From the IMG/VR virus record IMGVR_UViG_3300025129_000005: a stretch of DNA of 64,000 nt. One strand, given 5' to 3'. A model generated the notes under the pieces. That model saw only the letters and a list, made by a program, of their open reading frames with translations. It was not told where the DNA came from and did not search any database. Made by a program: the position numbers and the translations under genes. This stretch comes from a virus. Taxonomy: Duplodnaviria; Caudoviricetes. Shown one piece after another: positions 31,594-31,857 of this stretch; position 1 is the stretch's first letter, and each line of letters starts with the position of its first letter.

Positions 31594-31857
31594 AATTATG
31601 GGATGTTGGCTTAGAAGCAGCCATCATTTAAAGAGTAGGGCAAGCGCATGATGTTGTGGCAATTAGGTTGGTAGGAAGGGCATCCAATGACCAACTGAAC
31701 GGACGAACCAAAAGTTTGATCTCGCTAAATCAAATGAAACGGTATTTGGGTGGCTCCCATAAGTCCTAGCGGCACATGAGTCCACGTGGTAAAGTGAAAC
31801 GGCACCCCAGAAATGGTAAGGCTGAATCCCCTTTTGGCGTAATAGCACACCATAATT
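31594..31857 (+). ncRNA. Structured RNA reproducing the 23S rRNA L11-binding domain (H43-H44) with a 200-nt insert
   Basis: GGATGTTGGCTTAGAAGCAGCCATCATTTAAAGAGT...GCGTAATAGC matches the conserved 23S segment; closed by AATTATGG/CCATAATT; no long plus-strand ORF. Confidence 0.75.

Follow-up and report, generated by a model that had tools for sequence, protein, structure and literature searches.

A stand-alone phage non-coding RNA that mimics the H43-H44 segment of 23S rRNA and belongs to a large RNA family

In this study, we describe a non-coding RNA gene of ~270 nt (31592-31860) from a T4-like phage of an aquifer, located in a 64,000-nucleotide stretch of DNA that was analysed as a whole (hereafter the window). 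The data strongly support a stand-alone transcribed RNA that mimics the H43-H44 segment of 23S rRNA, and the element is a member of a large and seemingly undescribed family of phage RNAs, of which at least 206 distinct elements of one split design were gathered. Altogether, our findings argue for a stable RNA, separate from any ribosome, in which the GTPase centre is rebuilt around a phage-specific stem and which would act as a decoy by binding uL11; taken jointly, these propositions appear to us on balance probable. The features of the locus are given in Table 1, with 23S rRNA positions in parentheses.

TABLE 1 Parts of the rRNA-like element and of its transcription unit in the window
Feature	Position	Strand	Basis
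Sigma-70-like promoter TTGACT-17-TATCAT	31548..31576	+	consensus scan, 10/12 matches; pattern match only
Closing stem, 5' strand AAUUAUGG (1048-1055, H42 position)	31594..31601	+	pairs with 31850-31857
H43 mimic (1057-1081), A1067 loop UUAGAAGCA	31603..31627	+	identical to the enterobacterial sequence
Junction UUAAA (1082-1086) and lower H44 5' strand GAGU (1087-1090)	31628..31636	+	covariation, invariance
196-nt arm, class a	31637..31832	+	base-stem pairing, RNAalifold, class-a module
Linker UUUG, arm to upper H44	31833..31836	+	family conservation
Upper H44 with A1095 hexaloop, GC-GUAAUA-GC, then A1101, C1102, A1103	31837..31849	+	conservation, covariation
Closing stem, 3' strand CCAUAAUU	31850..31857	+	pairs with 31594-31601
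Stable branched hairpin in the 3' part of the transcript, 17-bp stem, 94 nt	31861..31954	+	fold
Intrinsic terminator, 17-bp stem then T-rich tail	31967..32006	+	terminator scan and fold

The two rRNA-like halves reported by the initial annotation, GGATGTTGGCTTAGAAGCAGCCATCATTTAAAGAGT (31601-31636) and GCGTAATAGCAC (31837-31848), as well as both strands of the closing stem, were all located where they had been placed. Once the 200-nt insert (31637-31836) was taken out, 31601-31636 and 31837-31850 aligned without gaps to Salmonella 23S rRNA (1093-1143, corresponding to ~1056-1104 in Escherichia coli) with 47 of 50 positions identical, so that the halves do jointly reproduce H43-H44. The statement that no further rRNA sequence surrounds the element also held, since 31601-31636 was the only part of the 64-kb window to have 20-mers in common with 23S rRNA and an Rfam search of the whole window at gathering thresholds returned no match; in E-value mode, Rfam gave only chance matches on the terminator between 31400 and 32100. 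An rRNA gene or fragment was rejected, as there is no contiguous rRNA on either side and no LSU model match above threshold. The search with LSU and intron models proposed earlier gave weak LSU matches (25-26 bits) on related loci, confined to the GTPase centre, and no intron match.

The sources of the collected elements were contigs of IMG/VR, large phages in culture (of Aeromonas, Pseudomonas, Xanthomonas, Cronobacter, and other hosts), and a small number of bacterial assemblies. Seven elements lie in the cultured-phage genome records retrieved; cultured carriers comprise the Pseudomonas phages pf16, Astolliot, and UNO-G1W1, Aeromonas phage 4_4572, Ralstonia RSP15, Cronobacter GAP32, Pectobacterium CBB, Serratia BF, and several Erwinia and Xanthomonas jumbo phages. 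A covariance model (R1), built on 35 short-arm members from which the window was excluded and taking the RNAalifold consensus as its structure, matched 31592-31860 over its full length (model positions 1-155) with 93.1 bits (E 1e-25), compared to 49-61 bits for genuine 23S rRNA. The window element fits the family layout with a closing stem at 1055/1104, an arm after U1090, a UUUG linker, and A1101. When genome contigs were scanned, 101 of the 120 matches listed were chance ones lacking the 5' half, and a match in Paenibacillus phage Pd_22F proved to be real contiguous 23S rRNA and no family member. The family was found neither in Rfam 15 nor in a full-text literature search; most subscription journals lay beyond the reach of that search, and an earlier description is possible.

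Comparison of the members strongly supports a fold under selection down to a tertiary base triple, because the closing stem, H43, 1082:1086, the base stem of the insert, and the triple itself all covary. The phage-specific 8-bp helix proposed in place of H42 (AATTATGG, 31594-31601, with CCATAATT, 31850-31857) is indeed not rRNA and is paired family-wide: 1047-1055/1104-1112 form pairs in 68-99% of 153 members with all four Watson-Crick types, shifted-register controls giving 30-45% at the variable positions 1047-1053, so that pairing is kept in this H42-like stem and sequence is not conserved. In H43, 1057:1081 and 1058:1080 covary throughout the family, and U1060, U1066, C1072, and A1077 are invariant (unbiased sample, n = 71). 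At the junction, 1082:1086 occurs as U:A (83 elements), C:G (45), or A:U (16), followed by G1087, A1088, G1089, and U1090, which are invariant in the family. The unbiased sample also showed full conservation of G1093 and A1098 (100%), with 95% for A1095 and 86% for A1067, the latter being more conserved in real rRNA. A1101, a family signature (98%), pairs with U1090 and is present in the window as the A at 31847.

Moreover, 1091:1100 and 1092:1099 covary, the second changing in step with position 1072: U1092-A1099 was found in all 21 elements selected solely for U1072, and C1092-G1099 in 167 of the 168 elements with C1072. The C1072/(C1092-G1099) contact is listed for the GTPase-associated centre of E. 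coli (PMC2952862). The window carries C1072, C1092-G1099, G1071, and G1091-C1100, and it agrees with the expected fold in H43, H44, 1082:1086, U1060/A1088, and both triples between the H43 loop and H44. Hence, the earlier proposal that the closing helix implies selection for the fold is upheld by covariation among homologues, both in this helix and in the 1072/(1092-1099) triple. Folding of the single sequence misses this structure (whole-element MFE z = +1.05, not significant), which comparative data recover.

The arm leaves H44 from its 5' strand, between pairs 1090-1101 and 1091-1100. Its base stem (31637-31640/31829-31832, AGGG/CCCU) is paired in 99, 98, 90, and 65% of 178 members, every pair type being represented; alternative registers fail. 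It also holds a long helix X, hairpins with the loops GAAGGGCAUC, CUCGCUAA, and UGGCU, and a class-a 3' module consisting of helix alpha (31801-31803/31821-31823), an ACC/UAAG internal loop, and a CCA-GAAA-UGG tetraloop hairpin (31807-31816). For nine window-like inserts, RNAalifold predicted 39 pairs, with compensatory changes in 30, and the class-a arm is probably a second folded module; the class-a module was present in 64 of 206 elements among the matches listed. Insert lengths range from 28 to 453 nt across the family, the 28-nt form being a plain hairpin in some members, and the arms fall into recurrent, internally conserved classes with no motif common to all. The linker is UUUG in 161 of 178 elements overall and, in the unbiased sample (n = 57), UUUG in 40, UUUA in 10, and another sequence in 7. 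In the arm of 7-9 members, we found a copy of the sarcin-ricin loop (AGUACGAGAGGA hairpin, at most 3 mismatches), which is the other half of the ribosomal factor-binding site; the best match in the window arm has 5 mismatches in 14. Blast of this arm against 23S 2695-2706 gave no match, scans by blastn-short and for motifs, run against 23S, 16S, and 5S rRNA, turned up nothing but a 10-mer of 5S rRNA (E 0.44), with no module match, and Rfam likewise returned no match for the arm.

In nature, this RNA is transcribed and keeps its arm. RNA contigs from three aquifer metatranscriptome runs were identical to 31628-31949, 31678-31936, and 31653-31850, all of them between the promoter and the terminator, with none upstream of the promoter and none past 31949. 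The 600-nt flanks of the element had zero RNA contigs and the surrounding 20 kb almost zero, the DNA run covering everything. Because the metatranscriptome contigs match the element and not the flanking genes, the RNA is made and its insert retained. The sigma70-like promoter that had been assigned to the element was confirmed as a pattern match, with RNA contigs starting downstream of it. The terminator assigned to the same unit is present as well; its placement needed correction, as it does not follow directly and the branched hairpin, which the RNA contigs traverse up to 31949, lies in between. The region 31855-32015 folds with an MFE of -55.5 kcal/mol (z = -9.1), a stability reached by 0 of 200 shuffles, and the branched hairpin may be a processing or stability element. 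Contig depths were low (3.5-7.7), contigs being no gauge of abundance.

A tRNA gene lies within 2 kb in 137 of the 209 elements listed, on the same strand every time, and this neighbourhood is typical of the family without being universal. The window element is atypical: a tRNA/tmRNA scan found none in the 64 kb, and the element is equipped with a promoter and a terminator of its own. It is flanked by small open reading frames without family matches, the downstream genes being on the opposite strand. Recurrent neighbours in the family are polynucleotide kinase, a Ro-like RNA-binding protein, a phosphoesterase, and a CCA-adding enzyme; an RNA ligase gene lies 1.3 kb from the window element, and a 2'-5' RNA ligase gene adjoins the copy of XacN1. 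Clustering of the neighbour proteins (4533 open reading frames) gave no cluster in more than 7 loci, and a search for uL11 homologues in five carrier phages found none. Therefore, the partner of the RNA should be a universal host component. Candidate ADP-ribosyltransferase paralogues at 47702-53278 received no support from Pfam and were kept out of the argument.

The 5' and 3' ends of the RNA meet, closed by the phage-specific stem, and restore the secondary and tertiary fold of the GTPase centre. The free 58-nt rRNA domain folds alone and binds uL11 tightly. Hence, we propose that the phage RNA should bind host uL11 and would display the A1067/A1095 cleft; judging from the conservation of the domain, it would bind thiostrepton as well. 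It would then lure away, as a decoy or bait, a molecule whose usual docking place is the GTPase centre of the ribosome. This molecule could be a factor of the translational GTPase type, the RelA/uL11 sensor of the stringent response, or a toxin directed against this site, and the outcome would be translation protected or reprogrammed during infection. Titration of uL11, uL10, RelA, or other factors is plausible judging from the fold, from which we infer the decoy role; uL10 is the weakest candidate among them, given that the family retains the H42-like stem as base pairs and not as sequence. The retention of the exposed and functionally important A1067 (86%) and A1095 (95%) is consistent with a decoy. 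Nevertheless, several points weigh against it: the RNA would face tens of thousands of competing ribosomes in each cell and its depth is low here, the arm exits H44 beside the base triples, where uL11 or factors would still have to fit, A1067 is conserved in only 86%, and the window element has an arm without recognisable rRNA mimicry and stands outside the tRNA context of the family. A more elaborate version, which we find quite possible while stopping short of calling it probable, could be a modular RNA gene of large phages that rebuilds the factor-docking site away from the ribosome and forms, with host uL11, a mini "stalk base" trapping or misleading a ribosome-directed host factor or toxin. 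Such a device would offer the GTPase centre always and the sarcin-ricin loop too in some members, and its victim might be an alarmone synthetase of the RelA type, a GTPase, or an effector that resembles Tre23 or is a nuclease.

The bacterial toxin Tre23 modifies H44 at 1095-1098 (PMC8661411), and the RNA could be a counter-defence sponge, i.e., an inhibitor of, or a false substrate for, toxins that the host or a competitor aims at the factor-binding site, whether ADP-ribosyltransferases such as Tre23 (H44) or nucleases and glycosidases (sarcin-ricin loop). This would be a specific version of the decoy with another beneficiary, paralleling phage tRNAs that replace or shield host tRNAs from anticodon nucleases. 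We consider it unlikely, even though the target of Tre23 is exactly the 1095-1098 loop, some members add the sarcin-ricin-loop copy, the family sits in tRNA clusters on the tRNA strand without exception, and RNA-repair and quality-control genes recur nearby, including the RNA ligases near the window element and the XacN1 copy. Each neighbour gene cluster occurs in at most 7 loci, however, and such genes are typical of phage tRNA regions anyway; substrate decoys would also be poor against catalytic toxins unless binding were very tight. Moreover, we know of no defence system that targets H43/H44 in phage infection, Tre23 being an interbacterial effector.

Slightly less credible still is a role of the rRNA-like domain as a scaffold, a self-folding and nuclease-resistant platform, possibly coated by uL11, whose functional part would be the arm, serving as an aptamer or as a docking or multimerisation module like those of large phage RNAs beside tRNAs. 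The recurrent conserved classes of arms (28-453 nt; class a in 64 of 206 elements among the matches listed), the 30 compensatory pairs of the window-like subclass, and the class-a tetraloop hairpin with its UAAG/ACC loop, which in our reading vaguely resembles tetraloop-receptor modules, would suit such a role. However, A1067, A1095, and both loops are conserved far past the needs of a scaffold, and the arms have no motif common across classes. A plain 28-nt hairpin suffices as the arm in some members, and the constant part must therefore carry function.

The initial annotation had alternatively suggested captured rRNA exons around a mobile intron, and 31637-31836 could be read as a group I-type intron at rRNA position 1090, whose splicing would leave a 64-nt perfect mimic or whose presence would mark the locus as a captured rRNA fragment. 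The insert does follow a U, ends in G, and is 200 nt long and well folded; position 1090 is a known LSU intron site, and ACGGCACCC...UAAGGC resembles the 3' part of the Azoarcus intron. Nevertheless, this reading is very improbable and was abandoned. No Intron_gpI (RF00028) or other ribozyme match was found in 31400-32100 at E <=10, nor any group I match on six related loci at E <=5. Homologous inserts measure just 28-65 nt in several members and close on themselves, the first 3-4 nt pairing with the nucleotides that precede the linker and not with the "exon" as P1 needs, and 18% of the inserts in the unbiased sample end in A, so that a terminal G is not invariant. In addition, the locus lacks both a homing endonuclease gene and intact rRNA around it, and the RNA contigs are continuous over the 3' junction, with no spliced joint in three RNA runs, contigs being blind to a rare or 64-nt spliced form. 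An assembly chimera with host rRNA reads, or a functionless decaying rRNA fragment, has a negligible chance of being correct, for although Logan unitigs of the DNA run break in the rRNA-like 36-mer, one of them ending at 31630 and its successor beginning at 31605, both overlap and enter it from phage sequence, the 3' half and closing stem are not contiguous rRNA, the RNA is expressed, and the same split design with compensatory changes recurs in at least 206 independent elements, 7 of them in the cultured-phage records retrieved, which excludes the chimera as far as sequence data can.

To our knowledge, no separate gene for a copy of a functional rRNA centre is known from any virus or cell. 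The mimic is widespread, conserved down to a tertiary triple, and expressed in the environment. If binding of uL11 or factors proves true, it would represent a new route by which phages manipulate translation, act on the stringent response, or counter ribosome-directed immunity, and part of the "dark" RNA in phage tRNA regions would be explained; a mini "stalk base", if real, would establish a new class of RNA-based devices for anti-defence or host take-over, and no stand-alone mimic of an rRNA functional centre would have been found in nature before it. Beside this, the family is a source of natural sequence variants of an RNA tertiary fold that is among the best studied, and it shows that H44 can accommodate a three-way junction at 1090/1091, a property useful in RNA engineering. 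The cultured carrier phages make the mimic directly testable.

Among known systems, the closest is the GTPase-associated centre itself (H42-H44, E. coli 1051-1108, with the 58-nt domain that binds uL11 and thiostrepton), which is alike at 47 of 50 positions and in its H43/H44 pairs, 1082:1086, U1060/A1088, the A1067 and A1095 loops, and the style of triple covariation. The phage element differs in being a separate ~270-nt gene outside any rRNA, in swapping H42 for an arbitrary covarying stem, in the insertion, family-wide, of an arm of 28-453 nt and a UUUG linker at 1090/1091, and in the 1090-1101 pair, which is U-A in the phage family and A-U in E. coli. Leaders of r-protein mRNAs, such as the rplJL L10 leader (RF00557), are likewise off-ribosome RNAs imitating an rRNA protein-binding site, but they are cis-acting, lie upstream of r-protein genes, and have a loose rRNA likeness, whereas the phage RNA is a near-exact copy with its own promoter and terminator; an L10_leader-type mimic was rejected, with no Rfam match and no downstream r-protein gene. 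In the "ribosome-in-pieces" work of Munishkin and Wool in 1997, synthetic RNAs of the thiostrepton region and the sarcin-ricin loop reportedly bind EF-G. These are also free copies of the halves of the factor-binding site, both of which some phage members carry; they are laboratory constructs, in contrast to a natural phage gene whose window member holds the GTPase-centre half only. Phage tRNAs and toxin decoys are likewise phage RNA genes that copy host or defence RNA, and the family has loci and strand in common with the tRNA genes, but it copies an rRNA domain, and we know of no cognate toxin or defence system for it. Pseudo-ToxI of phage PhiTE is such an RNA decoy against a toxin (PMC3475682). 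Finally, GOLLD and ROOL, large RNAs of phages and prophages, are also structured non-coding RNAs of phage tRNA regions, from which the present family, without an Rfam match to either, is set apart by the rRNA mimicry that defines it.

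Our study shows that the element at ~31592-31860 is a transcribed stand-alone RNA combining the secondary and tertiary fold of the 23S rRNA GTPase-associated center with a variable arm. It lies in a gap without ORFs (31519-32017), between plus-strand genes ending at 31518 and minus-strand genes starting at 32018, in which G+C rises to 43-46% versus ~30% in the surroundings. The rRNA-like strings quoted in the initial annotation are found in the window where it placed them, and 31594-31636 joined to 31837-31857 aligned without gaps to Salmonella 23S rRNA, with 47 of 50 nucleotides identical (23S 1093-1143, E. 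coli ~1056-1104). As also annotated, no other rRNA surrounds the element: a 20-mer in common with 23S rRNA occurs at one place only in the 64-kb window, and no Rfam family matched anywhere in it at gathering thresholds. No tRNA gene was found in the window.

Features of the RNA gene and its surroundings (23S positions in E. coli numbering)
Feature	Position	Strand	Remark
Predicted promoter	31548-31576		
8-bp stem in H42 position	31594-31601/31850-31857		
H43 mimic with A1067 loop	31603-31627		1057-1081
1082-1086 turn	31628-31632		
G1087 to U1090	31633-31636		
200-nt insert	31637-31836		between base pairs 1090-1101 and 1091-1100 of H44
Class a module, purine-rich strand with AGUR			
Class a module, helix alpha	31801-31803/31821-31823		covaries GGC/GCU, GUC/GAC, AGC/GCU, GAC/GUC
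Class a module, ACC/UAAG internal loop			
Class a module, 3-bp hairpin			GNRA- or UAAC-type tetraloop (CCA-GAAA-UGG)
G1091 to C1100 with A1095 loop	31837-31846		
A1101, C1102, A1103	31847-31849		
Predicted terminator	31967-32006		
RNA ligase, 340 aa	33204-34226	+	PF09414 with PHA02142 OB domain; phrog_968; 1.3 kb downstream of RNA gene

The window DNA was present in 18 aquifer metagenome runs, and parts of it in three metatranscriptome runs, likewise from aquifers and under three study codes. RNA contigs identical to the window cover 31628-31949 (323 nt), 31678-31936, and 31653-31850, between the promoter and the terminator that the initial annotation had assigned to the element and that are now predicted. 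Over 31000-32600, all of which is covered by a DNA run, no contig of the three RNA runs fell on 31000-31593 or 31972-32600. Over 22000-41999, two RNA runs had no other phage-identical contig, and the third (X21) had only two other pieces of 151 nt each (39585-39871, depth 2), which may mark another abundant transcript. Since DNA contamination would not single out one locus, we read the element as a transcribed, comparatively stable RNA; its 5' 36-mer collapses into rRNA contigs. The rRNA mimic is followed, ahead of the terminator, by a 94-nt branched hairpin (31861-31954) whose 17-bp stem is perfect. This hairpin is extremely stable (z = -9.1), is covered by RNA contigs, and belongs to the transcript; it may serve in RNase III-type processing or in stabilization, or be a second small RNA.

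Searching phage genomes by blastn turned up this two-piece design in Aeromonas phage 4_4572, Pseudomonas phages Astolliot, UNO-G1W1, and Milchi, Xanthomonas phages XacN1 and XaC1, and Cronobacter phage GAP32. With another query, the list grew by Ralstonia RSP15, Pseudomonas pf16, Pectobacterium CBB, Serratia BF, several Erwinia jumbo phages, and a Vibrio phage; in none of these is the element annotated. Two independent IMG/VR pattern scans, on the 3' half and on the 5' half, gave at least 115 to 120 loci each and, with two further scans, at least 206 distinct elements. Among the 88 matches listed for the 5'-half pattern, none was real rRNA; the 3' half was recognizable in 81, all with an insert of 28 to 350 nt after ...GAGU, and in the remaining 7 the locus ended or the 3' half was not found. 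A covariance model trained on 35 short-arm members, with the window left out, aligned end to end with 31592-31860 at 93.1 bits (E 1e-25), versus 49 to 61 bits for genuine 23S rRNA. Real elements make up 19 of the 120 matches listed in bacterial assemblies, mostly in metagenome-assembled genomes. Cultured carriers have one above-threshold copy per genome. In Astolliot (L002, ~1165-1495), a diverged second member sits upstream of the first in tandem; it combines U1072 with U1092-A1099 and has a shortened turn at 1082-1086 and the arm end GACCCGUAGAGCAUUUG (class b). Paenibacillus phage Pd_22F (MZ092003.1, 83.4-84.6 kb) was rejected as a member, as its record contains contiguous genuine 23S rRNA in its last few kb, probably host DNA or an assembly artifact.

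The new closing helix had been taken as a sign of selection for the fold, and its covariation across the family bears this out. Among 153 members without indels, the stem 1047-1055/1104-1112 is paired in 68 to 99%, with all four Watson-Crick types, versus 30 to 45% for shifted controls at the variable positions 1047-1053. In these 153 members, the pairs are A:U (128) and C:G (20) at 1057:1081; U:A (63), G:C (51), A:U (26), and C:G (8) at 1058:1080; and U:A (83), C:G (45), and A:U (16) at 1082:1086; U1060 and A1088 never change. The decisive test was of the base triple by which the H43 loop is docked on H44. For E. coli, C1072 and C1092 are listed as a cis WC/H pair that comes with a C1072-G1099 hydrogen bond, and an analogous contact links G1071 to G1091-C1100 (PMC2952862). 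When IMG/VR was scanned for U1072 5' halves with the 3' half unconstrained, the 3' half could be recovered for 21 distinct elements, and every one of them had U1092-A1099; among C1072 elements, 167 of 168 had C1092-G1099. Such a three-way change is difficult to account for unless the RNAs take the tertiary fold of the GTPase-associated center; the same covariation was reportedly described in real rRNAs by Conn, Gutell and Draper in 1998.

In samples unbiased by the search pattern, G1059, U1060, G1063, U1066, C1072, C1075, A1077, C1079, A1084, A1085, G1087, A1088, G1089, and U1090 are invariant in the 5' half (n = 71), as are G1093 and A1098 in the 3' half (n = 57); A1067 and A1095 are conserved in 86% and 95%, respectively. 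At position 1061, U accounts for 58% of members, A for 27%, and G for 14%. Because U1061A and U1061G make the isolated rRNA domain more stable in its tertiary fold and A and G are common here, many phage copies may be "super-folders." An extra hairpin in the H43 3' strand (~1076-1079) marks a second tolerated insertion point in some members (IMG/VR loci L046, L013, L125, L096, L102, L103, L073, L123, and L072).

The arm also has a defined architecture. Across 178 elements, its nucleotides 1 to 4 pair with the four preceding the 4-nt linker in 99, 98, 90, and 65% of cases; all pair types occur, and alternative registers fail in this set. The window arm belongs to recurrent class a (64 of the 206 elements collected), a three-way junction of base stem, variable helix X, and conserved module. 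Its larger helix X domain is common to ~10 members; RNAalifold on nine of them predicted 39 pairs, 30 with compensatory changes, and the conserved loops are GAAGGGCAUC, YCGCUAA, and UGGCU. The window arm has no similarity beyond chance to 23S, 16S, or 5S rRNA and holds no sarcin-ricin-loop copy. Such copies occur in the arms of 7 to 9 other members, e.g., AGUACGAGAGGAAC in a hairpin of locus L085. A hairpin with the near-perfect loop sequence (AGUACGAGAGGA) was seen in L085, L268, L043, L060, L233, L219, and L173; the RNAs from these loci therefore mimic the translation-factor binding site in both of its rRNA halves.

A tRNA gene lies within 2 kb of 137 of 209 elements, on the same strand in all 137, and in cultured phages the RNA is directly upstream of a tRNA; the window copy, with its own predicted promoter and terminator, is an exception. 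There is no conserved neighbor protein, the largest cluster occurring in 7 loci. Recurrent neighbors are HNH endonucleases, polynucleotide kinase, a Ro-like RNA-binding protein, a phosphoesterase or phosphatase, and a CCA-adding enzyme. Elsewhere in the family, RNA-repair genes recur close to the element (Pnk, CCA-adding enzyme, a 2H phosphoesterase, and the 2'-5' RNA ligase of XacN1, whose gene ends ~20 nt upstream of the element). In the window, 47702-54146 (minus strand) holds a tandem array of paralogous ORFs of ~215 to 290 aa, labeled ADP-ribosyltransferase-like by another reader; they have no Pfam match at E 0.01, which leaves that label unsupported, and one has a sub-threshold papain-like match. 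No uL11 gene was found in five carrier phages; any protein partner would therefore come from the host and be shared by very different hosts.

In isolation, the 58-nt domain is able to fold autonomously and binds both uL11 and thiostrepton. Within the ribosome, EF-G, the EF-Tu ternary complex, and the RelA-tRNA complex are contacted by its 1067/1095 cleft together with uL11. We propose a model in which the RNA would bind host uL11 and serve as an off-ribosome copy of the factor site, as decoy or bait. Such a generic decoy, already suggested in the initial annotation, is the reading we favor, at somewhat better than even chances. We argue that the ligand-facing surface matters, and not a stable fold alone, because the exposed bases are conserved, no phage partner gene accompanies them, and some members add a sarcin-ricin loop. 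Sequestration of uL11 could blunt RelA activation, or a factor could be captured. For uL10, also suggested initially, a role as partner is unlikely, since conservation of the H42 equivalent is limited to its base pairs. Within or beside the decoy reading, the RNA could absorb a ribosome-directed toxin, a possibility to which we give about one chance in a handful: the Tre23 ADP-ribosyltransferase toxin targets H44 at 1095-1098, and its action lowers EF-G GTPase activity (PMC8661411). That the rRNA-like part is a scaffold for a functional arm seems a little more doubtful still.

Captured rRNA exons around a mobile intron, the other initial proposal, are very improbable. The RNA contigs cross the insert's 3' boundary (31836/31837) unbroken, and no joint that skips the insert occurs in the contigs of the three RNA runs; thus, the insert is retained in RNA at the level of contigs, which are blind to RNA ends, strand, abundance, and a rare spliced form. 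Moreover, no group I or other ribozyme matched at E up to 10, the homologous arm shrinks to 41 to 65 nt in some members and to a plain 28-nt hairpin in one, the arm pairs with itself and not with the "exon," and its final G is A in 18% of the unbiased sample. An artifact, either a chimeric assembly or a functionless fragment, is hardly credible: although Logan unitigs of the DNA run break within the rRNA-like 36-mer, as expected because this repeat is common to every bacterium in the sample, both run in from phage sequence and overlap, and the recurrence of the two-piece design in at least 206 distinct elements excludes chimeric assembly.

No matching family is present in Rfam 15, and no published description of such an RNA was found in the full-text literature, subscription journals being mostly outside reach. 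We rate this kind of gene, in which a virus carries an rRNA functional center as a free-standing copy with a putative decoy function, as categorically new. Compared with rRNA, the family differs in three respects, namely, A1101, the arm, and the linker: A1101 (98%) pairs with U1090 in the phage RNAs, whereas E. coli has A1090-U1101.
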